Notes: generated by a model from the letters alone, not told the origin. A DNA stretch of 64,000 nucleotides from Dictyostelium discoideum (GCA_000004695.1 CM000154.2:3104001-3168000); one strand, 5' to 3'. Counted from the first letter of the stretch, positions 4,150-54,082 are shown. Translations and numbers: made by a program.

Positions 4150-7100
4150 TTAAGAACCTTGGGTTCCAATTTTTTTTAGTTTTTTAGATAATTGATTTTC
4201 AACAAATTTCTTTTTATAGATATAGAAAGATAAAGCAATAACCAAAGCCACACCTAATACACCAGAAACAACCACCACAGGAATTAAATAAGCAGGTCTT
4301 TCACTTTCACCACAATCATTTTTAAAAGATGTCGTAACTAAAACGGAAAAATCAGGGTCAATTATACAATTTGTACAATATGGTAAATTTAAACCAACAA
4401 TAACTGAATCACTTGATTTTGTAACAAGCTCAGATGTGATAATTGAAGATCTACCATCTGAAAGTATTCTATTTAAAAATCTGGCTTGCATAATTTTTGA
4501 ATCCTTTTTAATTGTTATATAATTTAATAATTCGTTATTACTATTTTGAATATCTGTATCTTGTTGATTACAATCATTATTATCACTTGTTACTGATGAT
4601 TGAAATTGTAATTGTAAATTATTTAAGAATGAATTATATTGATAATTATTAATTGATACCGAAATTTTAATTGAACCACTATCTAAAGTTAAATTATAAC
4701 CTGCAAATGAGTAATGTTTTGATTTCTCTTTAATCTCCTCAACTGTATATGATACAGTACAATTTGTTAATGATTGAACTAATGTTTGAGAGAATTGATA
4801 AATATTATTACTATTATTATCATCTGTATTTTTCATTTCTGTTACCCATTTATTATCTAATGTATACTCTTTAATTACATTTTTATCAACATCAAATTCA
4901 ATTAATTTTGTAATTAAAATTTGGTAACTTGTTTTTTGATTATTTATAACTGTTGTACCATTATTATCAATTGTTGTATTTGATGATGGTACTCCACCAT
5001 TACCATTACCACCACCACCACCACTAATGATGCTACAATCAAATCCTGTATATCCAGATCTACAATTACATTCACCTGTATTTACAATACAATCACCATT
5101 TTTTGAACAATTATTTAAACAACTTTTAACACTTGTTTCATAAATGAAATAGCCTGACCATGAAACTCCATTTTGTTGAATTGATAATGACTTTTTACCT
5201 GTACCTGGCCAAATAGTACATTGTATTGAAACATTTGTTATGGTATTTTGAATTAATGGACAATTTTGATTATCAATGCTAACTATTAAATTATTATGAG
5301 AATTTGAAAACCAACCATATAAAGTTATATCACCACCCATTTCATTAACAGAATCAATCGAGGATACATATATATTGGTATTTATACTACAATCATCACC
5401 ACTCCATCCAACTGCGCAAACACATTTTAATGAATTTGTATCACAATATTCACCAATGTTACACTCTCTATAACATTTAGGTGGAAGTTGTGATTGAGTT
5501 GCATTTACTGTTTTAACAATTTCTTTAATACTTGAAAAATAAATTGTAAAAATACCATTTGATGGTAATAATTCATTAAAATAGTATGAAGATTCAAATC
5601 TGTATGATGGAATGGTTGGTTCCCAACTAAAAAATGGTACCGTATAAAAATCTTGAGAATTAAGTCCAATATCATTTCCCCACATTATTAATTTTTTATT
5701 TACTCTATCAATATAAATATTAACTTTAATTGTAGAACATGTTGGGTCATATTTCAAATTACTATTAAATAAAAAAATATTTCTTGATGATGATGGGTAA
5801 CATGAAAAACATGAAGGTAAAGTTCCAGATAAATTATTAAACTTTAAATCTAAAGACATTGAATTCATTGTACAATAACTTGAATCAACTGTTCCTGATA
5901 TCTTTTTTATAAAAAAAATAATAAAAATAAAAACATAATTATAAAAAAAAAAAAAAAATCAAAATTAATATTATTCAAATAATTTGATTTTTAAATTTTT
6001 AAAAAATACATACCATATTATTACTTAAATCTAAAATTGAAAAATTATTTTTTGGTAACTTTACATTTAAATTGGAATACAATATTTTTAATTCGTCAAC
6101 ATTTGAAAATTTATTCAAATCTTTTTCATTTGGAAAATTTCCTCCATTTATTTCAAATTTTTTGATATTTGGAAGTGATAAAAATGGGATCATACCATTT
6201 ATTGAAAATTCACCAAAAGTATATCCAAATCTTAATTCTGTTATATTATTGTTTTCTGGTAATTCAATCATTTGGGTTGGTTTATTTATCATTCCACCTA
6301 TTGATCTTTTTTTTTTTTTTTTTTTTTTATAATTATTATTATTATTTTTATTATTTTAAACGATTAAAAAAATTTAAAAAAAAATATTTACAATGATGTC
6401 ATTATTGAATTTTGAATATTAAATATTGATATTGGGAAATCTATAGTAGAATTATTAATGAATGCACTAAAAGATAAATAAAACTTTATTAGTTTACAAT
6501 TTCTAATAATAAAACTATAATTAATAATACATACAATTTTTGAACTTTGGTCATTGTTGCCAAGTTTGATACATCATTATTAATGTATGAAAAATAATCT
6601 GTTAAATATAAATTCAATTCTTTTACATTTACATTTGTAAAAGATGGTATAGAATTTGCAACTAAACTTAAAAAATCAATATCCAAAACACTTTTAAGGT
6701 CATTTACATAAGTAACTGAAATTTCTCCAATACTTGTATTAGGAACAATTTCTAGTATTCCAAATTTATTTAAATATGAAAATTTAAACTCTCCTTGAAA
6801 ACTAGGTGGATGAACTATTGATCTATTATGAAACAATTAATAATAAAATTTATGAATAATGATAATAAAAAAAATAAAAAAATAAAAAAATAAAATAAAC
6901 TTACAAATATGTTTGAGAAATTGGTGAATCAATCTTTACAACATTACATAGAGTTAAAGTTATAGATTCCACATAAACATTGCTTAAAAAATCTGGTGAT
7001 AGGTAACAATTTGAGAGTTTTCTTATTTTTTTTTTTTATTTTTAATATTGAAAATTAAAAAATAATTAATAAAATAAAAAATAGTTTAAAATAATTAAAA

Positions 7101-7510
7101 AATAAAATAAAAAAAAAACCTACAATTTACTTAAACTTGAAAATGAAAAACTACTTGATTCAATAATTTGAGTATTAGTTTGTATAATGTCTGCATAGAT
7201 TAAAACAACTTTATTTGAAATAGTTGTACAAGAAAACATATATTGATTTGAGTAATTACAAAAATCATAAACACCCTCACTTATTATTGGAAACCCTGTC
7301 ATATTAACATTCATACTATTAACTAAATCATTTAATAGTTGGGCTTATATTATTTTTAAAAATTTTAATAATAACTTCTTTATTTTTTATTTTTTATTTA
7401 TTTTTAAATAATTTTTAAATACCTTCCGAGGGGTCTAGAATTAGAGATGAAGCACATATATTTAAATAAAAATAAAAAAAAATAAAAACAAACATATATA
7501 TTTTTTTCAT
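4150..7510 (-). CDS. Type I membrane protein with a signal peptide, leucine-rich repeats, two EGF-like modules and one C-terminal TM helix. Five-exon model, ~879 aa.
   Basis: Exons on the minus strand: 7510-7423 (MKKIYMFVFIFF... signal peptide, donor GTATTT), 7343-7124, 6822-6535, 6305-6014, 5901-4150. Donors are GTATTT, GTAGGT, GTATGT, GTATGT. Acceptors are aag/tag/aag/aag. The phases 1, 2, 2, 0 close the reading frame across four separate ORF-track fragments. The LRR motif 'LDLKFNNLSGTLP' and 'LDLSNN' are present. Two EGF-like Cys patterns are 'CYRECNIGEYCDTNSLKCVCAVGWSGDDCS' and 'CLNNCSKNGDCIVNTGECNCRSGYTGFDCS'. The TM helix is 'AYLIPVVVVSGVLGVALVIALSFYIYKKK'. Confidence 0.7.
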
Positions 7511-7861: not shown

Positions 7862-8551
7862 TTAATTTTCTGAGATAGATGCATTAATACTTTTTAAATT
7901 TTTATCATTAATTTCAATGTCATTTGTAATATTTTGTTGAAACCTCTTTATAAAATATTTTAAAAAAATAAATGTACCTAAACCTCCAATAATTATTAAA
8001 CCAACTATTGAGACTACAATTACAATAACTATAATTCCGGTGCCTGGATCATCATCATTTTGGTCACTACTAATTAAACCACTACTATTTATATTGGTGC
8101 TACTGTCACTATTATTATTTGAATTTTGTTCTATAAATTCAATTTTATTATTGCAATTAAAATCCTTTACAAGGAATTGGCAATCAATTTTTAAATTTTT
8201 AATTATTGCTTGGGGTTGGAGGACTTGTTGATTTTTGTTGATTTTAAAAATGGCAATATCATTATAATTATCATTTATCAAATTATAAAAACATTTTATT
8301 TCATAATCAGAACTTTGATTAATTTTACAATATTTATTTGAAATTGAAACCATTAATTTCAAAATATTATTATAATTATTATTATTATTACTATTATATG
8401 TGTGATTAAAATTTATTAAAAAGAAAATTTGTGTTGAATTATTGTTAATTTTTATCATTTCAATTTTTGATTGTTTAAAATATTCACTAGAATTTATTTT
8501 ACTAATATCTATTAAAAAAAAAAATAATAATGATATCAAGTATAATTTCAT
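7862..8551 (-). CDS. Hypothetical small type I membrane protein of 229 aa with an N-terminal signal peptide, an Asn-rich ectodomain and a C-terminal TM helix.
   Basis: ATG at 8551. Hydrophobic N-terminus 'MKLYLISLLFFFLIDIS'. TM segment 'GIIVIVIVVSIVGLIIIGGLGTFIFL'. Single exon. Confidence 0.5.
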   Translation of the reverse strand: MKLYLISLLFFFLIDISKINSSEYFKQSKIEMIKINNNSTQIFFLINFNHTYNSNNNNNYNNILKLMVSISNKYCKINQSSDYEIKCFYNLINDNYNDIAIFKINKNQQVLQPQAIIKNLKIDCQFLVKDFNCNNKIEFIEQNSNNNSDSSTNINSSGLISSDQNDDDPGTGIIVIVIVVSIVGLIIIGGLGTFIFLKYFIKRFQQNITNDIEINDKNLKSINASISEN

Positions 8552-9095
8552 TTTATTGTTTTTTTTTTTTTTTTTTTTTTTTGAAAATATATGGGCACAA
8601 ATTGGAAGAAAAAATAATGATAATAATTTTCTAAAAAATCATTTCTTTTCTTTTTTTTTTTTTTTTTCTCTTTTTTTTTTTATTAAACTTAAAACAAAGA
8701 TTGGGATGTTTTTTTTTTTAATAATGAAATATAGACTTGAAAGGTAAGAAAATAAAAGTTTATAATAAAATGAAAAGATATTTATGATTGTTTTTTTTTT
8801 TTTTTTCATTTTTTTAAATTTATTTGAAAACTTTGGATATTATGATTGATTTGATAATCAAAAAATCAAAAAGTGTTTTGAAAAAAAATCTTTTTTTTTT
8901 GTAATCATTCATCATTTTTTAAAATTTTAAAAAATTGATTTTTGTTTTTGATGACCTAAAATTAGATTTTTTTTTTTTTTTTTTTCATATTAAAGATGTT
9001 CATATTAAAATTTTTTTTGTGTTAATTTGAATTGGAATGACTTGAACAAGTTTCTAACTGGGGATAATAGTCAAGAGGACTTTCTAATATTATCA

Positions 9096-9106
9096 GGAAT
9101 CGAACC
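9096..9106 (-). promoter_or_regulatory. Extra B box (ex-B), about 30 nt downstream of the tRNA-Lys 3' end
   Basis: Minus-strand GGTTCGATTCC is a perfect B-box consensus lying 29 nt 3' of the tRNA. There is not enough room for a second tRNA, because no partner acceptor or anticodon arm is present. This matches the known Dictyostelium arrangement of an extra B box in tRNA 3' flanks. Confidence 0.6.
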
Positions 9107-9135
9107 TATGATCTGTTTCATCACAATTAAAATTT

Positions 9136-9208
9136 CGCCCAAAGGGGGGCTCGAACCCCCGACCACAAGGTTAAAAGCCTTGCGCTCTACCGACTGAGCT
9201 ATCTGGGC
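9136..9208 (-). tRNA. tRNA-Lys, anticodon UUU
   Basis: The minus-strand sequence is GCCCAGATAGCTCAGTCGGTAGAGCGCAAGGCTTTTAACCTTGTGGTCGGGGGTTCGAGCCCCCCTTTGGGCG, 73 nt. It has a 7-bp acceptor stem (GCCCAGA/TTTGGGC with one G-U pair). The A box is TAGCTCAGTCGG. The anticodon loop is CTTTTAA (UUU). The B box is GGTTCGAGCCC. The discriminator is G. The CCA is not encoded. Confidence 0.92.
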
Positions 9209-9882
9209 TTTGATGATGAGAGTTAAAAAAATTAGTAAAAAAAAATTATAATATTATAATTTAAAAATCTTAATGTATTTATTCATTTATTCATTTATTT
9301 TTTCATTTATTCATTATTCAGTTATTTAAGTTATTCATTTATTAAGTTATTCATTTATTCATCTTTTTATTTATATATTCCTTTATTTTTTTATTTATTT
9401 ATTTATAGTTTATTTATTTATTTAATTATTTATTAATTTATTATTTATTTAAAAAAAACATTTGGCGTGGCTATGCTCATGCATAATATTTTTTTTGTAA
9501 GAATCTTGTTTTGAACAAAAAAAAAAAAAAAAACAATAATACAAAATAATTACCTAATAAATAAGGAAAGATTAAAATCACTCCTATAATATAAAGCAAA
9601 GTTTATTTTATTTTATTTTAAAAAAATTTTATTTGTTAATTTAAAATTATATATTTTTATTAAATTTTTTTTTCTTTTTGGAAAATTTAAATTCTAAAAA
9701 AAAACTACGCCACATAAAAATTATTCTCCAAGTAGAAATTAAAATAAATAAATAAATAAATAATAAATAATTTAATTAAGTTTTTTTAAGTCATAGTATT
9801 TTTCTTTATTTTTGATTTTTTTTTTTTTTTTTTTTTTTGTTTTTTTTTTATACAAAAACTAAATTTTTTTTTTTTTTTTTTT

Positions 9883-10242
9883 TTAATGTTTTTGTTTAAT
9901 TAATTTTTGTTCATTCTCTTTGTATTTCTTTCCTTCATAGAATTTCCAAGCAAATAAACCAAATACACCCAAAGCTAGGAAACCAATGAATTTATTTGAT
10001 CCAGGAGCTGGTACCTTTGGTGGATAACCGGTTCTTTGAGCATTATGGACATTTTCTTCAATAGTATGTTTGGCATTATTCAAATTGCTTGAAATGTTCT
10101 CTTTAATATTTTTGAAATTTGAATTTAATTGATCTTTTGATGCATTTATTCCAGAGGCATATGAGGATGCAGTATTCTTGGCATTCTTTAAACCTTCTGC
10201 TGCTTTTTTAGCAAGTTTTTCTTTATCCCAATTATCAGTCAT
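9883..10242 (-). CDS. Small 119-aa hypothetical protein with a single C-terminal TM helix, tail-anchored-like
   Basis: ATG at 10242. The N-terminal half is hydrophilic and K/A/N-rich. C-terminal 'FIGFLALGVFGLFAWKF' is followed by a basic tail. Confidence 0.5.
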   Translation of the reverse strand: MTDNWDKEKLAKKAAEGLKNAKNTASSYASGINASKDQLNSNFKNIKENISSNLNNAKHTIEENVHNAQRTGYPPKVPAPGSNKFIGFLALGVFGLFAWKFYEGKKYKENEQKLIKQKH

Positions 10243-39049: not shown

Positions 39050-39216
39050 TTGGATAGATTTTCAATAGGAACAAATATGTCAAGCAAAGCATATAATAGA
39101 TTAAATATTAATGAAAGTATTGAAAATAATGAAAATGAAAATGAAAATGAAATTTATCGTGAAAATGAAGATTTAAATAATAATAATAATAATAATGATG
39201 AAAATAAAAATGAAAG

Positions 39217-39247
<31 letters not shown>

Positions 39248-40263
39248 GATAATAATGATGATGATGATAATAATAATATAAATAATGGAATAATAAACAA
39301 TAATAATAAAAATAATAATAATAATGAAAATAATAATGAAAATAATGAAATTGAAAGAAGTCAAATTATATTACAACCAATTATTAGGAAACCAAAGATT
39401 GAAAAGAAACAATCATTTTTATCAAAATATTTAAAGAGTATTATATATGGTGGTATGGATGGGTTAGTTAGTATTTTCGTATCGATAGCAGTTAGTTTTT
39501 CAAGTTCCGATGCAAAGATATCAGTATTATTAATTATTGTATTAAGTAAATTAGTTGCTGGTGCAATTTCAATGGGTATGGGTGACTATTTGGGTACTCA
39601 AGCAGATATAGATTTCGCAAGGGGTGAAAGAAAGAGAGAAGCTTGGGAAGTTGAATATTATTTAGAGGGTGAAAAAAGTGAAATGGTTGAAATTTATACT
39701 AAAAAAGGAATTCCTGAAGAAGTGGCACGTGAAGTAGTCGATATTCTATCCTTGAATCCAAAAGGATTTGTAGATGTAATGATGGTTGAAGAATTGGGTA
39801 TTATGCCAGACGTTGAGTCTCAAACACCTTGGAAAAATGGGTTAGTGAATTTCACCTCTTTTGTCTTTTTTGGAATTTTACCATTATTACCATACTTGGC
39901 TTTCTTGGCAATTGCAACCGTTGCTAAAATTCCATCTGATCAACATTTATATTTATTTTTAATTGTTATTGGTATAACTGCATTAACTTTATTTTTAATT
40001 GGAATATTTAAAGTAACTTATTTTTTTTTATTTTTAAAAAAATAATCAATTAATTTTTTTTAATTTATTAACAAAAAAAAAAAATCTATTTTTATTATTT
40101 TTTTTTTTTAAAAATTTTTATTTTCCAGGCAAAATCAACAGATACTAAATGGTACAAGAGTGGTGCTACAACAGTTATTTTTGGGGTAATTGGGGCAGCT
40201 GCTGGATTAGGTACTGTTGAATTAATAAAAGTTATTTTTCCAAATGTGGATATTTCTCAATAA
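39050..40263 (+). CDS. VIT1/CCC1-family vacuolar iron transporter-like membrane protein. Two exons, about 365 aa, with an N/D-rich N-terminus.
   Basis: Exon 1 is 39050-40012 with a GTAACT donor. Exon 2 is 40129-40263 after acceptor ttccag. VIT signatures include 'GGMDGLVSIFVSIAVS', 'AGAISMGMGDYLGTQADIDFARGERKREAWEVE', 'EMVEIYTKKGIPEE' and the C-terminal TM 'AKSTDTKWYKSGATTVIFGVIGAAAGLGTVELI'. Confidence 0.8.
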
Positions 40264-40873
40264 ATAAAATTTTATTTAATCTTAATTTTAATTTTTTTTT
40301 TTTTTTTTGGAAAAAATAAAAAAAAAGTGTAGAGAGTGTCAACCTCACAAAAAAAAAAAAATTTCATTATTTATTTTAAAAAGAGCAAGTAATAAAGATA
40401 ATTATTATTTTAGAAACTTTTTTAATATTTTTTATATTTTTTATTATTATATTTTTTTTTTCAAATACCAATTGGAATAGTTATTCAATTTTTCAGTAAT
40501 TTTATTTCAGAATCAATTAAATTGGGAAGAATTATTTTTGTAAAAAAAAATTTCAGATATTTTTTAATTTTTTTTATTTTTTATTTTTTTTTTTATTTTA
40601 TTTTTTTTTTTATTTTTTTGTGCGTTTTTTGTGTGAAAATGTGGAATTAGTTTATCGCATTAAAACAATAAAAATAAAATAACCCACACATTAATTTTAC
40701 CATCCTTCAAACACACATACACACACATTTTCATTGTGTGAATAAAATAAAAAATAAAAATTGAACAATAATAATAAAAAAAAAAAAAAAATAAAAATAA
40801 AAAAAAAAAAAAAAAAATAACACTCCCAATTATTTATATATATATATATACACAAACCAAATTTAAATAAAAG

Positions 40874-42982
40874 ATGAAAAAATTACCGTTTTTGATAATA
40901 ATTATATATATATTTTTAATATTAATTTCAATTTCATCATCAATAGATTATAACTATAATAATGATATTGATAATAATAATAATAATATAATAAATCGAA
41001 ATAAAAATAAAAATAAAAATAATTTGTATAATAATAAAGTAATAATAAAGAATGATGATAATGATGATGAAATAAATAATAAATTTAAAATTAGGTTAGA
41101 TGATAATGAAGATCAAGATATATATAATGAATATCATTTTTTAAGTAAAGTGCATAATAGATTAGCATTTAATATTTTTGGAAGTAGTAGTGAAAATAGT
41201 GGTAGTGGTAGTAATAGTAATAGTAATAGTAAGAATACAGATTCATCAACTGGTCCAACACCATCACCAATATCAATTAATGGCACATTAAATTCAACAG
41301 CTACTGTTTATTGGTCAGGTGGTAAATCAAGTTGTAAATCAGTGAATTGTACAGAAGAAGGTTTTTCAACGGGTGATAGTTATGCGTGTAGTTATGAAAT
41401 TACGCCAACATATCAAAGAGGTCAGTGGGAGAAGGGTGTAAAATATTTTAAAGATCCTTTACCAAAATCAATTTTAACAAGTCAAGTGGTTGGTGTATCA
41501 TTTGTAATCAATGGTGTGGTTGGGTGTACGCCATTGAAACAAGAGTTGACAACTATCGAATTCTTAATTCAAGATGTTCAAGTTGGTCAAACCATTTCAA
41601 CCAATAGAAGTGACGATTGTTCGTGTGGTATCTGTTATAAAGATTATGAAATTTTACCACAATCTTATGATTTATTAGGGTATAATAAAAGTGGGTTAAA
41701 TAAAGTTCAATTGTTATTATTGGATAATTCAATTTGTGCCACGAGTTTAGATATCATTTTCTATTATCATCCCTCAACAATACCACCAACACCAACTCCA
41801 ACACCATCTAAACCAACAATATCACTACTTAAAAAGTATTTAATTATAGGTTTTTCAATAGTTGGTGGTTTATTAATTATTGGTGGTTGTTTTCTATTAA
41901 TTAGAAATCGTTATAGATCAAGTGGTTATTATAAACCTGATAAAAATGATTACACTCAAATTAAAGATGGTAAAGATATTGATATTCATCAAATTAAAAT
42001 TGGTGTTAGAATTGGTAAAGGTAATTATGGTGAAGTTTATCTTGGTACTTGGAGAGGTTCTCAAGTTGCTGTTAAAAAATTACCTGCTCATAATATAAAT
42101 GAAAATATTTTAAAAGAATTTCATAGAGAAATTAATTTAATGAAGTAAGTTATTATTATTTTTAATTTTTTTATATTTTTAGTTTTATTAATTATTTTAT
42201 TATTTTTTTCTCTCCTATAGGAATTTAAGACATCCAAATGTTATTCAATTTTTAGGATCATGTTTAATACCACCAGATATTTGCATTTGTACAGAATATA
42301 TGCCAAGAGGTTCATTATATTCAATTTTACATGATCAAGCATTACAATTACAATGGTCATTACTTATTAAAATGATGATTGATGCCGCAAAGGGTGTTAT
42401 TTATTTACATAATTCAACACCAGTTATTTTACATAGAGATTTAAAATCTCATAATTTATTAGTAGATGAAAATTGGAAAGTTAAAGTTGCAGATTTCGGT
42501 TTAAGCACAATTGAACAACAAGGTGCAACAATGACTGCTTGTGGTACTCCATGTTGGACTTCACCAGAGTAAGTTTGTTTTTTTCTAATAATAAAAAATA
42601 ATCAAATAATCAAATAATTATAAATATTTTTTACTAATAAATTAAATATAATAATAATTATAAACATAATAGAGTATTAAGAAGTCAAAGATATACAGAA
42701 AAAGCAGATGTTTATAGTTTTGGAATTATTTTATGGGAATGTGCAACTAGACAAGATCCATATTTTGGTATACCACCATTTCAAGTTATTTTTGCTGTTG
42801 GTCGTGAAGGTATGAGACCACCAGTTCCACAAAATGGTCCACCAAAATATATTCAACTTTTAATTGATTGTTTAAATGAAAATCCATCACATAGACCAAC
42901 GATGGAACAATGTTTAGAGAGATTAGAATCAATTGATTCAAGTGGTTATTCAGATTTACAATATGTTCGTCAACAACTTTAA
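40874..42982 (+). CDS. Receptor-like TKL-group protein kinase with signal peptide, Cys-containing ectodomain, TM helix and kinase domain. Three exons. Dictyostelium drk/VSK-like.
   Basis: Exons are 40874-42144 (donor GTAAGT), 42221-42568 (acceptor tatag, donor GTAAGT) and 42673-42982 (acceptor aatag). The phase-2 junctions rebuild 'K|[14 protein letters not shown]' and 'TSPE|[22 protein letters not shown]'. Kinase motifs are '[23 protein letters not shown]', '[12 protein letters not shown]' and 'VADFGLS'. The TM helix is 'LIIGFSIVGGLLIIGGCFLLI'. Confidence 0.85.
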
Positions 42983-43412
42983 AAAAAAAAAATAAAAATA
43001 AAAAAAAAATGAAAATATAATAAAAAATAATAAAAAAAAAAAATATCTAAATATATTTTTCCCCTCTCTAATCACATTTTATTTTTTTATTTTTTTATTT
43101 TTTATTTTTTCTTTTTCTTTTTCTTTTTCTTTTTTCCAATGGTTCGTTAAAAATAAAATAAAATTTTTTAAAAAAAAATAAAAATAAAAATAAAAATTAA
43201 AAATAAAAATAAAAATCTATTTTTTTTTTATTTTTTTTTTAAGATATCTCTCTCCCGCAATAATTTTTTTTTTTTGATTTTTTGGTTTTTTGGTTTTTGG
43301 TTTTTTTTTTTATTTTTTATTTTTATTTTTATTTTTATTTTTCTTCTTTTTAGTGTGTTTGTGTTGATCAATGATAATAATATAATAATCAATTTCTTTT
43401 AAAAAATAATCA

Positions 43413-43468
<56 letters not shown>

Positions 43469-43574
43469 TAATAATATATTATTATATTAATAATATATTA
43501 ATAATATATTAATATATAATAAAAATAATAAAAATAATAAAAATAAAGTTTAGCGAAAATATATAAAAGATAAA

Positions 43575-45927
43575 ATGAAAGTTCAAATAGTTTTTTTTAG
43601 TATTACAGTTTTTATATTTGTTCTATTTTTATTATCAGTCGAATCAAATACAAAAATTAAAATAGTTCCATCATTTTTAGAAAATAGTAACGAAATTGAA
43701 GATTTATATATTAATTTAGATAGTGATAGTAAAAGTAGCGAGCATACTACTAGTAGTAGTAGTAGTAGTAATAGTAAAAATAAAGGAGATAGCAGTAGCA
43801 GTAGTAGCAATAGTGGTAGTAGTAGTAATAGTATTATTAGTGGTGATAGTAATAGTAAAGATGCACCAACTACTTCAAGTGATAGTTTATCACCAGCAAC
43901 ACCAATACCGACAGATGGATTATTATCAGCTTCTACCTATGTTACATTTGTATGTTATATAAATATAAATATTCAACATAATTTTAATATACATAAAAAA
44001 AAAAAAGTATTAATATTTTTATTTTTTTTTTAAAAAAAAAAAGACTGGTGGTAAAGTTTTATGTGAAAATATAACATTTTGTCCAAATGGTTATATGTAT
44101 TCAAGTGATTATGCATGTAATTATGATATTGTACAAAATGATCCAGCAACACATAGAGGTGATTGGAATGATGGTATTAAAATGTTTGAAGATCCTTTAC
44201 CAAAGAATACGACTATAGATCAAGTTGAGGGTATATCATTTACAATATCAGGGGCAGTTGGATGTCAAGTTACAAGTAGTGCTACTACATTGGAATTCTA
44301 TATTCAGGATTTACTAGTTCTAACTAATACTACATCAAGATATGATATATGTACATGTGGTTCATGTTATGTTACATTTGGTACAGAAGTTTATAAATAT
44401 AATATGTTGGGATATAATATAACTGGTGAAAATAAATTTCAAATTCAAGTTAGTGTAAATTCAATGTGCGCAACTACCATTGGTATAACACTTTATTATA
44501 AACCTCCAACCATTACACCAACACCAACCATTACACCAACACCAACCATTACACCAACACCAACCATTACACCAACTGTAACACCAACTGCAACACCAAG
44601 TACAACACCAAGCACTACACCAACTACAACACCATCAACACCAACTCCAACTCCTACAAAGTCACCCTATAGTGGTGCATTATCACCTCAAGTTAAAAAA
44701 TATATTATCATTGCATCATCGATAACAGGTGGTTTATTAATTTCAATATTTTCATTTGTTTTCATTAGAAAGAGATTAAATTCAAAAAGATCTGGTTACA
44801 CTCAAATTAAAGATGGTAAAGATATTGATACTCAACAAATTAAAATTGGTGTTAGAATTGGTAAAGGAAATTTTGGTGAAGTTTATCTTGGTACTTGGAG
44901 AGGTTCTCAAGTTGCTGTTAAAAAATTACCTGCTCATAATATAAATGAAAATATTTTAAAAGAATTTCATAGAGAAATTAATTTAATGAAGTAAGCTATT
45001 ATTATTATTATTACTATTATATATAAATTTAATTTTTATTAATTATTTTATTATTTTTTTTTCTCTCCTATAGGAATTTAAGACATCCAAATGTTATTCA
45101 ATTTCTAGGATCATGTTTAATATCACCAGATATTTGCATTTGTACAGAATATATGCCAAGAGGTTCATTATATTCAATTTTACATAATGAAAAAATTAAA
45201 ATATCTTGGTCATTAGTAAAGAGAATGATGATTGATGCTGCAAAGGGTATTATTTATTTACATGGCTCAACACCAGTTATTTTACATAGAGATTTAAAAT
45301 CTCATAATTTATTAGTAGATGAAAATTGGAAAGTTAAAGTTGCAGATTTCGGTTTAAGCACAATTGAACAACAAGGTGCAACAATGACTGCTTGTGGTAC
45401 TCCATGTTGGACTTCACCAGAGTAAGTTTGGTTTTTTCTAATAATAAAAAATAATCAAATAATCAAATATTTTTTACTAATAAATTAAATATAATAATAA
45501 TAATAATAATTAAAATTATAATAGAGTATTAAGAAGTCAAAGATATACAGAAAAAGCAGATGTTTATAGTTTTGGAATTATTTTATGGGAATGTGCAACT
45601 AGACAAGATCCATATTTTGGTATACCACCATTTCAAGTTATTTTTGCTGTTGGTCGTGAAGGTATGAGACCACCAACACCAAAATATGGTCCACCAAAAT
45701 ATATTCAACTTTTAAAAGATTGTTTAAATGAAAATCCATCACAAAGACCAACGATGGAACAATGTTTAGAAATTTTAGAATCAATTGAAACCAAAGGTTT
45801 TGATGATATACCTGTTAATAATAATAATAATAATAATAGTAATAATAATGAGAATAATAATGAAAATAATAATAATAGTGATAATAATAATAATGATATT
45901 AATTATAGTAACAGGGTGATAAATTAA
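43575..45927 (+). CDS. Second receptor-like TKL kinase in tandem with the first. It has a Ser-rich stalk and a (TPTPTI)n region. Four exons.
   Basis: Exons are 43575-43949 (donor GTATGT), 44044-44990 (acceptor aag, donor GTAAGC), 45074-45421 (acceptor tatag, donor GTAAGT) and 45525-45927 (acceptor aatag). The kinase exons and both kinase-domain introns are nearly base-identical to the upstream paralog. The N-terminal exon encoding the signal peptide plus '[27 protein letters not shown]' is specific to this gene. Confidence 0.85.
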
Positions 45928-49406: not shown

Positions 49407-50347
49407 TTATTGTGCTTTTTCAATACCATAACCTATCCAAAATGCAACTAAAGTTGTAACAGCACCATTGATTAACATTTGAATACCAGATATGAACCAA
49501 TTTTTATTTGAGACGTAACCTTTGAAACAACCTAATAAAAAGAGAACAAAGACGAATAATGCAATTGAGATGATAAAGATTGAATCGAATTCGCCTTTAC
49601 TATTATAATGACCACTACAAAGGTATGCTAAAAGTGGTATACCACCACAAACTAAAAATGATGCAAATGTAACTAATGCACTCTTGATTGCGCCATAATC
49701 TGTACCACCACCACCTTCCTCATCATCGTCATCATCAACGGTAGCACCATGTTCTTCCATCATCATTATCGAAGTGACAGTTTTACGATATGGGAATAGT
49801 AATTCAACGATTCTAGATGCTTGTGAATTTGTAAACCCTTTCTTTTCATATATTTCAATTAATATTGATTTCTGTTCATCTGGATTACTATCTATATCTT
49901 GTTCAAGTTTTTTATATTCTAATTTTAGTTGATCCTCTTCCGCTATTTCACTAACATAATCACCAACTGCCATACCTATTGCGTCACCTAATAAATTGGC
50001 AAATGCTATAATTAATATTACACCTCTTGTTAATCCTGCTCCTGTTGCTGCTGCTACAATTGCAAATGTTGTCATAATACCATCTAATCCTCCAAACACA
50101 ATTGATTTAATAAATTCTCCTGATTCTCTAAATTTTTTAATAAAAAAAAAAAATAAAAAATAAAAAATAAAAAATTAAAATTATTTAAATTATTTTTATT
50201 TATTATTTATTTATTTATTTACTCTTTGTGTGGTTCTTTTCTATCTTCTTCATCTATTAAAGGTTTTCCATCATGTGCATCAATTGATTTTCTTATATCA
50301 TTTTCTTCATAAGCACTACGTGCTCCTTTTAAATTTCTACTTGCCAT
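49407..50347 (-). CDS. Second VIT1/CCC1-family iron-transporter-like protein. Two exons, about 281 aa.
   Basis: Exon 1 is 50347-50223 (MASRNLKGARSAYEENDIRKSIDAHDGKPLIDEEDRKEPHKE, donor GTAAAT, phase 2). Exon 2 is 50127-49407 after acceptor tttag. VIT signatures include 'VFGGLDGIMTTFAIVAAATGA', 'GMAVGDYVSEIAEED', 'IEIYEKKGF' and C-terminal TMs. It is a paralog of the 39050 gene. Confidence 0.8.
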
Positions 50348-52041: not shown

Positions 52042-54082
52042 TTATTCTTGTTTAATATCACATAAATCCAACCATTTAACACTATCTGGTAATATACGTG
52101 GTGTTAATTTTTGATTGAATCCATCTTCTAAACATACATTCGTTACAGTATTAGGAATTGAACCAATCAATAATTCTTGTTTAATATCACCTAAATACAA
52201 CCATTCAACACTATCTGGTAATATACGTGGTGTTAATTTTTGATTAAATCCATCTTTTAAAGATACATGAGTTACAGTATTAGGAATTGAACCAATTATT
52301 AATTCTTGTTTAATATCACCTAAATTCAACCATTTAACACCATCTGGTAATATACCTGGTGTTAATTTTTGATTGAATCCATCCAATAGAGAGACACTCG
52401 TTACAGTATTAGGAATTGAACCATTTATTAATTCTTGTTTAATATCACCTAAATACAACCATTCAATACCATCTGGTAATATAATTGGTGTTAATTTTTG
52501 ATTGAATCCATCCAATAAAATGACACGAGTTACAGTATTAGGAATTGAACCAATTATTAATTCTTGTTTAATATCACCTAAATACAACCATTCAACACTA
52601 TCTGGTAATATACCTGGTGTTAATTTTTGATTGAATCCATCTTTTAGAAAGACACTCGTTACAGTATCAGGAATTGAACCAATTATTAATTCTTGTTTAA
52701 TATCACATAAATACAACGATTTAACACTATCTGGTAATATACCTGGTGTTAATTTTTGATTGAATCCATCCAATAAAGAGACACGAGTTACAGTATTAGG
52801 AATTGAACCATTTATTAATTCTTGTTTAATATCACCTAAATACAAGGATTTAACACTATCTGGTAATATACGTGGTGTTAAGTTTTGATTGAATCCATCC
52901 AATAAAGATACATTCTTTACAGTATTAGGAATTGAACCAATTATTAATTCTTGTTTAATATCACCCAAATACAAGCACTTAACACGATCTGGTAATATAC
53001 CAAGTGTTAATTTTTGATTGAATCCGTCCAATAGCATTACATGTGATGGTAATTTATTTTTTAATTCTGATAAAATATTACAATTGTCTTTGAATGCTAT
53101 ACCTTCCTCAAATTTAAAAAGACCACCTTCTATATAAATATAAAACTTTAAATTATTCCCTATATTTGGTAATTAGTAATGTGAAAATCATTTATTAAAA
53201 AAAAAAAACATTTTAAAGCTTACATTTAAAAAATTTATTATTATTTTCATCGATTTCAATTTTAAATCTACAATTATCTAAGGTATAAATTGATTTTAAA
53301 TTATTTTTAATATCATCAATTATCTGATTATTGAAATGAATGATTTGATTATCGTATTCATTTAATTTATTTGAATTATCGATATTATTATTATTATTTA
53401 ATACTATTAATGATTGTTGATATTGTTTAATAATTTTAATAGTATCTCTATCGATAATAAAATCATCTCCATTATCATAAATTTGTTGATCATTAAATTT
53501 TATAATTTCATTTAATTTTTCAATGGTTGTAATATTATCATTTTCATTTTCATTTTCATTTTCATTTTCATTTTCATTTTCATTTTCATTTTTATAATTA
53601 ATTATAGTTGAAAGTATTTGATTATCATTATTGATTGAAGAATTTATAATTGTATTTATTAATGTATTATTTTCAAAGGTTTTTTCTAATTGTTTTTGAA
53701 TATCTAATTCTATGATTGAAATGATATCATGAATTTTTTTAATTTCTTTTTTTAATGAATTATTATTAATATCAAATTGTGATTGAATTTTATTATATTT
53801 ATCATTTGATTGTTTTAATATTTTTTCATTGGTTTCTATTCTGTCAATTACTTTTTGATGTATATCATCTTTAAAATTATTCATTAATGAAAGAATATTT
53901 GAAGTTGATTCTAATGGATCAGTTTTGTGACCATGATGTTCACCTTTACTTGATGTACATTGAATACAACATGGTATTAATTTACAATCTAAACAAAAGA
54001 ATATTATATCTTTGTTTGGGTGAAGTGTACACTTTTTATTATTATCAATATTATTATTTATTATATTTTGATTGGATATCAT
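52042..54082 (-). CDS. B-box zinc-finger, coiled-coil and FNIP-repeat protein. Two exons, about 658 aa.
   Basis: Exon 1 is 54082-53224 with a GTAAGC donor in phase 1 and a 62-nt intron. Exon 2 is 53159-52042 after acceptor atatag. The B-box is 'CTLHPNKDIIFFCLDCKLIPCCIQCTSSKGEHHGH'. The exon also carries a poly-(NE) tract. Exon 2 contains ~15 tandem 22-aa FNIP units 'LDGFNQKLTPGILPDSVKSLYLGDIKQELIIGSIPNTVT...'. Confidence 0.75.

Follow-up and report, generated by a model that had tools for sequence, protein, structure and literature searches.

Introduction

Interlocus gene conversion restricted to part of a gene is known from the primate red and green opsins, the gamma-globins, RHD/RHCE, the KIR genes, and plant receptor-kinase and R-gene clusters. 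Here we describe a new example of this familiar textbook process in the social amoeba Dictyostelium discoideum. It involves drkA and its tandem neighbour, presumed to be drkB, two genes for receptor-like TKL kinases located in a stretch of 64,000 nucleotides (nt) of one strand (GCA_000004695.1 CM000154.2:3104001-3168000; hereafter the window, with positions counted from its first letter). Like the established systems, drkA/drkB displays sharp block ends, homogenised introns, and paralogs that are closer to each other than to their orthologs; and just as functionally important residues, the spectral-tuning sites, escape homogenisation in the opsins, a few patches that may be important by analogy escape it here. 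The locus differs from the known cases in that it belongs to a haploid organism with an AT-rich genome and carries no visible signature of GC bias, and in that the catalytic domain is converted whereas the sensing domain is excluded.

DrkA, DrkB and DrkC are the same proteins as rk1-3 and VSK1-3 (PMC1420674, PMC2064856, PMC7003747), with a published size range of 642-749 residues. Goldberg et al. (2006, PMC1420674) described rk1 and rk2 as TKL receptor kinases of the DRK family whose extracellular domains are closely related, and Fang et al. (2007, PMC2064856) named them VSK1 and VSK2. The only member with experimental data is DrkC/VSK3, for which tyrosine kinase activity, localization to the late endosome/lysosome and a role in phagosome maturation have been reported, and, according to an unpublished remark in the same paper, VSK2 also resides on late endosomes/lysosomes but VSK1 on vesicles of another kind (PMC2064856). 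DrkA and DrkB share with the DRK family the signal peptide, the single transmembrane segment and the C-terminal TKL kinase, and both have the "extracellular drk domain" of rk1/rk2 (Goldberg et al. 2006, PMC1420674). They differ from DrkC/VSK3, which has a TIG domain, as neither DrkA nor DrkB gives a Pfam match to PF01833 (TIG). The two genes are already annotated and named and are not new as objects, but our literature search on this gene pair found no report of drkA-drkB conversion, and the DRK papers are silent on exchange.

A block of near-identity covers the kinase halves of drkA and drkB

The two genes share a block of about 1 kb that includes both kinase introns (Table 1), recovered by an independent repeat search as a direct repeat (41947-42935 vs 44793-45787) whose copies lie 2846-2853 nt apart. 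Nucleotide identity in the codon alignment stays at 45-72% as far as position 41932 and rises to 88-100% from there to about 42950, with one dip inside the high-identity stretch (75% at 42309-42368). The coding part of the block differs at 39 of 809 bases (95.2% identity), and only four of these differences are silent. The coding differences are clustered, with 16 of them in one 40-nt window and a longest identical run of 307 nt (permutation p < 1/5000 for each). By approximate counts, the first kinase introns align with 69 matches, 7 mismatches and 7 gapped bases (91% identity at aligned bases), and the second with 92 matches, 2 mismatches and 19 gapped bases (98%). The kinase domains of DrkA and DrkB are 91% identical at the protein level and 82-84% identical to that of D. 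purpureum.

The first-pass annotation of the locus had described the kinase exons and introns of the two genes as near-identical, and the pairwise alignment agrees. Its further statement that an example stretch leading through an intron is the same base for base went too far: this stretch contains four exon substitutions (41985, 41989, 42022 and 42027), and the two versions of the quoted intron, one beginning GTAAGT and the other GTAAGC, differ by 7 mismatches and 3 indels.

The G+C content at third codon positions (GC3) of the block is 0.08, no higher than elsewhere. As a separate observation, in D. discoideum and D. citrinum alike GC3 reaches 0.205 in the drkA ectodomain module, roughly double that of the drkB module (0.08-0.10) and of the kinase block (0.08-0.09).

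Kinase blocks group by genome and ectodomains by paralog

We compared the locus across five genomes, namely D. discoideum AX4, a second D. discoideum, D. cf. discoideum and two D. citrinum, all of which carry the tandem pair. In a four-sequence alignment of the A and B genes from AX4 and D. citrinum, with the crossed site pattern as the control, the kinase block contained 34 sites distinguishing the paralogs, 25 sites at which both paralogs of a species share a state, and a single control site. The ectodomain half contained 293 A-vs-B sites, with two species-shared and two control sites. Both the excess of species-shared over control sites in the block (25 vs 1, binomial p = 4e-7) and the difference between the block and the ectodomain (Fisher p = 6e-20) are significant. 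When the alignment was extended to ten sequences, every pairing of the D. discoideum group with D. citrinum yielded 12-16 species-shared exon sites against none with the control pattern, and single strains (labelled Dc1, Dc2 and Dcf) had private substitutions carried by both of their paralogs, a mark of recent events.

Synonymous (dS) and nonsynonymous (dN) divergence, estimated by the Nei-Gojobori method, separates the two halves of the genes as well. In the kinase block, dS between paralogs is 0.057 in AX4 and 0.129 in D. citrinum, compared with 0.125 and 0.177 between orthologs. In the ectodomain module, the paralogs are separated by dS of 0.91-0.97 with dN of 0.57 (dS 0.91 and dN 0.58 for the AX4 pair), and the D. 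discoideum and D. citrinum orthologs by dS of 0.22-0.51 with dN of 0.04-0.05. The introns behave like the block in which they lie: the second kinase introns of the D. citrinum paralogs match at 124 of 124 aligned bases, apart from one 4-nt indel, whereas orthologous second kinase introns are 57-63% identical with gaps counted.

A neighbour-joining tree of the block, built from 836 columns after removal of codons that differ in amino acid, united A and B of D. citrinum with 100% bootstrap support and A and B of D. cf. discoideum with 95%. Near-neutral distances in the block were 1.9-5.6% between paralogs within a genome and 7.4-8.5% between orthologs of different species. The two halves of the genes give conflicting trees, with the ectodomain splitting into paralog A and B clades (100%) and the block grouping by species or genome (83-100%). 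Concerted evolution of the block is evident at the species, sub-species and strain levels. The shared-site counts, dS values and block trees bear out the ongoing gene conversion that the first-pass annotation had offered as one of two explanations, and we consider it very likely that drkA and drkB stem from an old duplication, with their kinase halves and the introns therein kept alike by recurrent, ongoing conversion while the ectodomains stay apart. The same annotation would have taken introns as divergent as the synonymous sites for evidence against conversion. This test is ill-posed: inside the block both values are about 0.05, and because equally low divergence is what homogenisation predicts, the comparison cannot discriminate; the valid comparison is with orthologs.

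Several observations weigh against this interpretation or limit its reach. The paralog dS in D. citrinum (0.129) is no lower than the ortholog dS, which indicates that the rate of conversion differs among lineages. Site 42392 is species-shared although it lies only ~20-40 nt from conserved patches on both sides (see below), implying very short or patchy tracts, or occasional parallel mutation. The intron site counts are approximate because alignment is uncertain in AT-rich DNA, and the GC3 of the block shows no signature of GC-biased conversion. Finally, an exact look-up of the 690-residue protein of the second gene in the protein collection returned no entry.

In the second D. citrinum assembly, the first kinase intron of the drkB ortholog contains a long (ATT)n expansion, well above 100 nt in length, which none of the other nine sequences shares and which illustrates how fast indels change the drk introns.

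Paralog-specific residues persist in six patches

Within the block, 29 sites are paralog-specific in all five genomes. All are exonic and they occupy 20 codons. The encoded amino acid differs at 19 of these, and the single silent codon abuts a changed one; among ~170 aligned intron bases, there are no fixed paralog-specific sites. The 29 sites fall into six patches (Table 1), the same patches being intact in all five assemblies. The largest patch, downstream of the hinge, holds 16 of the 29 sites, each in an amino-acid-changing codon. Silent sites and introns around and between the patches are homogenised, which implies that conversion proceeds in short or patchy tracts or that selection eliminates the long ones.

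Going by canonical kinase architecture, the largest patch would correspond to the alphaD-alphaE loop and the start of alphaE, and the patches would lie mostly on the C-lobe surface (the alphaD-alphaE loop, the start of alphaE, the alphaG-alphaH loop, alphaH and alphaI). On this placement, the 19 amino acid positions would belong to the Gly-loop, the alphaD-alphaE loop and alphaE start, the residue before the catalytic loop, the alphaG-alphaH loop, alphaH and alphaI. An AlphaFold2 model of the kinase from a nine-sequence alignment was too poor for placing the patches, with a predicted local distance difference test score (pLDDT) of 43. Presumably, selection keeps the patch residues different, and conversions that erase them are removed.

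Alternative explanations and a proposed mechanism

Near-identical 1-kb repeats located 2.8 kb apart can confuse short-read assemblers, so that reads of one copy are built into the other. However, the same structure is present in five independent assemblies, including the finished AX4 reference, each with private differences and with the six patches intact, which makes an assembly artefact extremely improbable. Alternatively, purifying selection could act on the nucleotide sequence itself, through codon usage, splicing signals or an intron element, with no exchange at all. The kinase protein is indeed highly conserved across Dictyostelia (67-84% identity as far as Physarum), and the extremely low GC3 (0.08) means that few codons are used. 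Such constraint, however, cannot create derived states that the two paralogs of a species have in common (25 sites vs 1 control site), nor does it account for introns that are only 57-63% identical between species and nearly identical between paralogs within a species, and a search for functional RNAs in the region and its introns gave no Rfam match at E <= 0.1. We consider this explanation, too, highly improbable.

A very recent tandem duplication, the other explanation offered in the first-pass annotation, would fit both the near-identity of the kinase exons and introns and the presence of a single gene at the syntenic position in D. purpureum and Polysphondylium violaceum, provided that the N-terminal half had diverged fast under positive selection or had been replaced. 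Yet both paralogs are found in D. citrinum and D. cf. discoideum and share the 293 paralog-specific ectodomain sites, and the ectodomain dS is near saturation, which positive selection on the protein cannot produce. Moreover, the paralogs are closer than the orthologs at silent sites and the tree sorts by genome, as a single duplication before speciation cannot give, and independent duplications in D. citrinum and D. cf. discoideum are excluded by the shared ectodomain differences. A recent origin of the pair is thus ruled out by the ectodomain dS of ~0.9 and by the same ectodomain differences in D. citrinum, and we find it very unlikely that any version with accelerated or replaced N-terminal halves can be upheld. 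One historical conversion or unequal crossover replacing the 3' half, with nothing ongoing since, would yield the sharply bounded block of high identity that is observed, but is itself quite unlikely: the shared changes are nested, some being specific to D. citrinum (12-16 exon sites), some to D. cf. discoideum (2 exon sites, with the A+B clade at 95%) and some private to single D. citrinum strains, and therefore point to separate events in separate lineages after their splits. In addition, one long tract would erase the six patches, yet these interleave with homogenised sites.

In the recurrent conversion that we favor, some 1 kb at the 3' side of each gene is repeatedly overwritten from its neighbour 2.85 kb away by non-reciprocal interlocus gene conversion, the likely route being homologous-recombination repair of breaks with the paralog as the template. 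Heteroduplex formation would fail where identity falls to 45-72%, fixing the block ends there. Because conversion would end where similarity collapses, that is, on the transmembrane and ectodomain side upstream and at the C-terminal tails downstream, the boundary would be self-reinforcing, and tracts that overwrite paralog-specific residues would be eliminated by selection. We infer both the recombination mechanism and the selection on the patches from general knowledge of ectopic recombination. The net effect would be that two old, distinct sensors drive a near-identical kinase that differs at a few positions of the C-lobe surface and the Gly-loop.

Age of the pair and history of its introns

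A single gene adjoins the same WD40 neighbour in D. purpureum and in P. violaceum, which identifies drkB as the positional ortholog and drkA as the inserted copy. The ectodomains of A, B and D. purpureum are equidistant (protein identity 44% for A-B, 47% for A-D. purpureum and 45% for B-D. purpureum), so the duplication is old, its age being roughly comparable with the D. purpureum split. In the ectodomain tree, D. purpureum joins B with only 40% bootstrap support, and the duplication may lie on either side of this split.

The intron near the 5' end of drkB reverses the direction of change assumed in the first-pass annotation, which saw the separate 5' exon as an acquisition of the second gene. 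At exactly the same position, the single gene of D. purpureum is also split by an intron (GTTACATTT/GTAAGT...ATATAG/AGTGGTGGTAAA, interrupting VTF/xGGK), and the split 5' exon of drkB is therefore ancestral, drkA being the copy that lacks this intron. D. purpureum and Acytostelium subglobosum share the position of the first kinase intron (LMK/N). The second kinase intron, which drkA and drkB carry in both D. discoideum and D. citrinum, is missing from D. purpureum, A. subglobosum and the intronless gene of P. violaceum; it may be a lineage-specific gain that was then shared between the paralogs by conversion, the alternative being repeated loss. Two bolder readings, that this intron is a recent gain spread by conversion and that the 19 resistant positions are the complete specificity determinants of DrkA and DrkB, strike us as possible but rather doubtful.

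In A. subglobosum, too, drk-like receptor kinases form a tandem pair (5001-7134 and 8160-10020 of its locus sequence). No homogenisation was found in this pair, one copy of which groups with a Heterostelium album gene in both domains.

The ectodomain module is widespread in Amoebozoa

The ectodomains of DrkA and DrkB contain a Cys module that is 44% identical between the two proteins. Its motifs were described largely correctly in the first-pass annotation, with YAC(S/N)Y(E/D)I, RG(Q/D)W, G(V/I)K(Y/M)F(K/E)DPLPK and C(S/T)CG(I/S)CY all found in both genes, except that both have YAC and the alternative Y(A/Y)C does not occur. Aligning nine dictyostelid and Physarum sequences, we found 17 invariant columns, six of them Cys. 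No Pfam family, those of carbohydrate-binding modules (CBM) included, matched either ectodomain at E <= 0.01. AlphaFold2, run with a 13-row alignment, returned a beta-sandwich (pLDDT 80, predicted template modelling score 0.78), and Foldseek linked it only weakly to CBM6/35-type structures, with all hits at E >= 1.4e-3. Sequence identity to structures of this type is 6-13%. The module, said in the first-pass annotation to be of unknown fold, is thus predicted to be a CBM6/CBM35-like beta-jelly-roll. In predicted fold it compares with the jelly-rolls of CBM6, CBM35 and CBM36 (galactose-binding-domain-like fold) and with domain III of the Cry toxins, but it differs from the CBM families in having its own invariant Cys pattern, C..YAC..C..CxCxxC. 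On the basis of the modelled fold, a carbohydrate-type ligand is a reasonable guess, no more.

The extracellular domain of rk1/rk2 was stated in 2006 to be unique to Dictyostelium (PMC1420674). It is not; it is a widespread amoebozoan module. An exhaustive profile search retrieved 355 cluster representatives at E <= 1e-3, of which 151 reached E <= 1e-10, with Pelomyxa, Mastigella, Gocevia, Vermistella and Physarum among the named carriers. In these relatives, TIG domains and the same kinase often lie C-terminal to the module, or two modules stand in tandem. The amoebozoan receptors that combine the module, TIG domains and a TKL kinase (Physarum, Pelomyxa, Gocevia, Vermistella) resemble DrkA and DrkB in the N-terminal Cys module and the kinase family, but have 1-4 TIG domains between the module and the membrane, where DrkA and DrkB have a Pro/Thr stalk. 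A search with the full-length DrkB protein was dominated by low-complexity words and gave 12 matches among 8000 candidates, so its list of relatives is incomplete. The module family, which no Pfam entry covers, also includes two-module proteins of ~330 residues and, encoded on metagenome or assembly contigs, very large proteins that join the module to MopE/FG-GAP/CARDB or ASH/HYDIN-type Ig repeats.

In protein sequence, the two ectodomains are 90-93% identical between D. discoideum and D. citrinum, with dN/dS of ~0.09 and 0.17. This conservation indicates purifying selection and means that they are not diversifying at present; the remark in the first-pass annotation that the ligand-facing regions diverge applies to the history of the paralogs but not to the species compared now.

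The annotated protein of D. purpureum DICPUDRAFT_159186 omits a 45-nt in-frame stretch that was called as an intron (~8715-8759 of the locus sequence). Read through, this stretch encodes GICVSEIFINFFYSKA, the last conserved strand of the ectodomain module including a conserved Cys, and the public gene model is probably wrong at this point.

Gene models, protein architecture and neighbourhood

Both genes were modelled by splicing of the evident GTAAGT...AG introns and are co-oriented (Table 1). The limits given in the first-pass annotation are exact, with the start codon of the first gene at 40874 and the end of the stop codon of the second gene, on the same strand, at 45927. Its family guess, the drk or vesicle-associated receptor kinases, was right to the gene: once spliced, the first gene translates into exactly the protein XP_636072.1 / UniRef100_Q54H46 of D. 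discoideum AX4, "Probable serine/threonine-protein kinase drkA". A gene for 690 residues occupies the same position as the second gene in another D. discoideum assembly, and the D. citrinum ortholog of the second gene, 86% identical, adjoins D. citrinum drkA. The second gene product is almost certainly DrkB, the name being taken from position, length and the literature; we take its UniProt entry to be Q54H45.

DrkA and DrkB are type-I membrane proteins that consist, in this order, of a signal peptide, a low-complexity segment, the Cys-stabilised lumenal/extracellular beta-sandwich module of ~160 residues, a Pro/Thr stalk, one transmembrane helix and a TKL-group kinase. Inspection of the translations shows a hydrophobic leader at the N-terminus of each protein and a single hydrophobic segment of 22 residues farther in, with the kinase domain C-terminal to it. 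The Ser-rich 5' exon, the (TPTPTI)-type linker and the poly-Asn tail attributed to the second gene in the first-pass annotation were all found as described there. Pfam places the kinase domain (PF07714) at residues 375-624 of DrkA (E = 1.3e-63) and 392-640 of DrkB (E = 1.4e-63). The closest solved kinase domains are those of CTR1 (E = 3e-68, 3ppz), followed by MLK1, TNNI3K, TAK1 and B-Raf, which fits the TKL group. DrkA and DrkB resemble Arabidopsis CTR1 and the Raf/MLK-like TKL kinases in kinase sequence, including a catalytic loop of the HRDLKSxN type, but the latter are cytosolic MAP3K-type enzymes that lack a signal peptide, ectodomain and transmembrane segment.

The window has a G+C content of about 22%, and its intergenic sequence is rich in homopolymers, as is typical of Dictyostelium. 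The genes in the neighbourhood are, in order, a RasGEF, a VIT1-family gene, drkA, drkB and a WD40 gene on the minus strand, and the order from VIT1 to WD40, including the inverted orientation of the latter, is identical in the four other assemblies. Two VIT1/Ccc1-family genes (39050-40265, plus strand, and 49407-50099, minus strand) lie inverted around drkA-drkB-WD40, and likewise in D. citrinum; as they are only 31% identical, they do not mark a larger recent segmental duplication. Farther along the window (52042-53037, minus strand), and unrelated to the drk pair, is an open reading frame made up of ~45-residue repeat units (LLDGFNQKLTPGILPDSVK.LYLGDIKQELI.GSIPNTVT), presumably resembling a Dictyostelium FNIP-repeat protein.

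Table 1. Features of the drkA-drkB locus (window coordinates)
Feature	Position	Strand	Description
drkA (rk1 / VSK1)	40874-42982	+	exons 40874-42144, 42221-42568, 42673-42982; 642-residue type-I receptor-like TKL kinase
Tandem neighbour, presumed drkB (rk2 / VSK2)	43575-45927	+	exons 43575-43949, 44044-44990, 45074-45421, 45525-45927; 690 residues
Homogenised (converted) block, drkA copy	41947-42936	+	~990 nt, from the (D/G)YTQIKDG juxtamembrane codons to LESI at the kinase end, with both introns
Homogenised (converted) block, drkB copy	44793-45788	+	2846-2853 nt downstream of the drkA copy
drkA first kinase intron, LMK/NLRHP junction	42145-42220	+	76 nt; drkB counterpart 44991-45073, 83 nt
drkA second kinase intron, TSPE/VLR	42569-42672	+	104 nt; drkB counterpart 45422-45524, 103 nt
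drkB 5' intron, VTF/TGGK	43950-44043	+	94 nt; no intron at this position in drkA
Patch before strand 1			DrkA DIDIH; DrkB DIDTQ
Patch in Gly-rich loop			DrkA Y; DrkB F
Largest patch, after hinge	42333-42371 (drkB 45186-45224)	+	DrkA DQALQLQWSLLIK; differing 13-residue segment in DrkB
Patch before HRDLK			DrkA N; DrkB G
Further patch			DrkA VPQN; DrkB TPKY
Patch in C-terminal helices			DrkA I and R; DrkB K and I
DrkA ectodomain Cys module ("drk extracellular domain")	41297-41770	+	residues 142-299
DrkB ectodomain Cys module	43932-44502	+	residues 120-278; split by the 5' intron (43950-44043)
DrkA stalk counterpart, short	41771-41818	+	from translation
DrkB Pro/Thr-rich stalk, ending TPTPTK	44503-44661	+	residues 279-331; from translation
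DrkA putative transmembrane segment	41837-41902	+	YLIIGFSIVGGLLIIGGCFLLI; hydrophobicity by inspection
DrkB putative transmembrane segment	44701-44766	+	counterpart of the DrkA segment, by inspection
DrkB Asn-rich C-terminal tail	45814-45903	+	outside the converted block; lacking in DrkA

Discussion

Continuing conversion between drkA and drkB, confined to the kinase half, is documented here, apparently for the first time, in five genomes. The results leave current understanding standing; they add a well-controlled case of partial concerted evolution in Amoebozoa that can serve for teaching or reference, and they bring two corrections, namely that the rk1/rk2 ectodomain extends beyond Dictyostelium and that the split 5' exon of drkB is the ancestral state. 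They also carry a warning for the family as a whole, because trees built from the kinase domains of the DRK family will mis-date the duplication.

For the biology of the two receptors, the outcome is a short, testable list of residues that likely bear the functional difference between two uncharacterised receptor kinases, whose relative VSK3 has been implicated in phagosome maturation. If the 19 positions are indeed the determinants, evolution would have carried out a saturation "swap" experiment that maps kinase specificity. These positions may set distinct partners, substrates or vesicle addresses of DrkA and DrkB.

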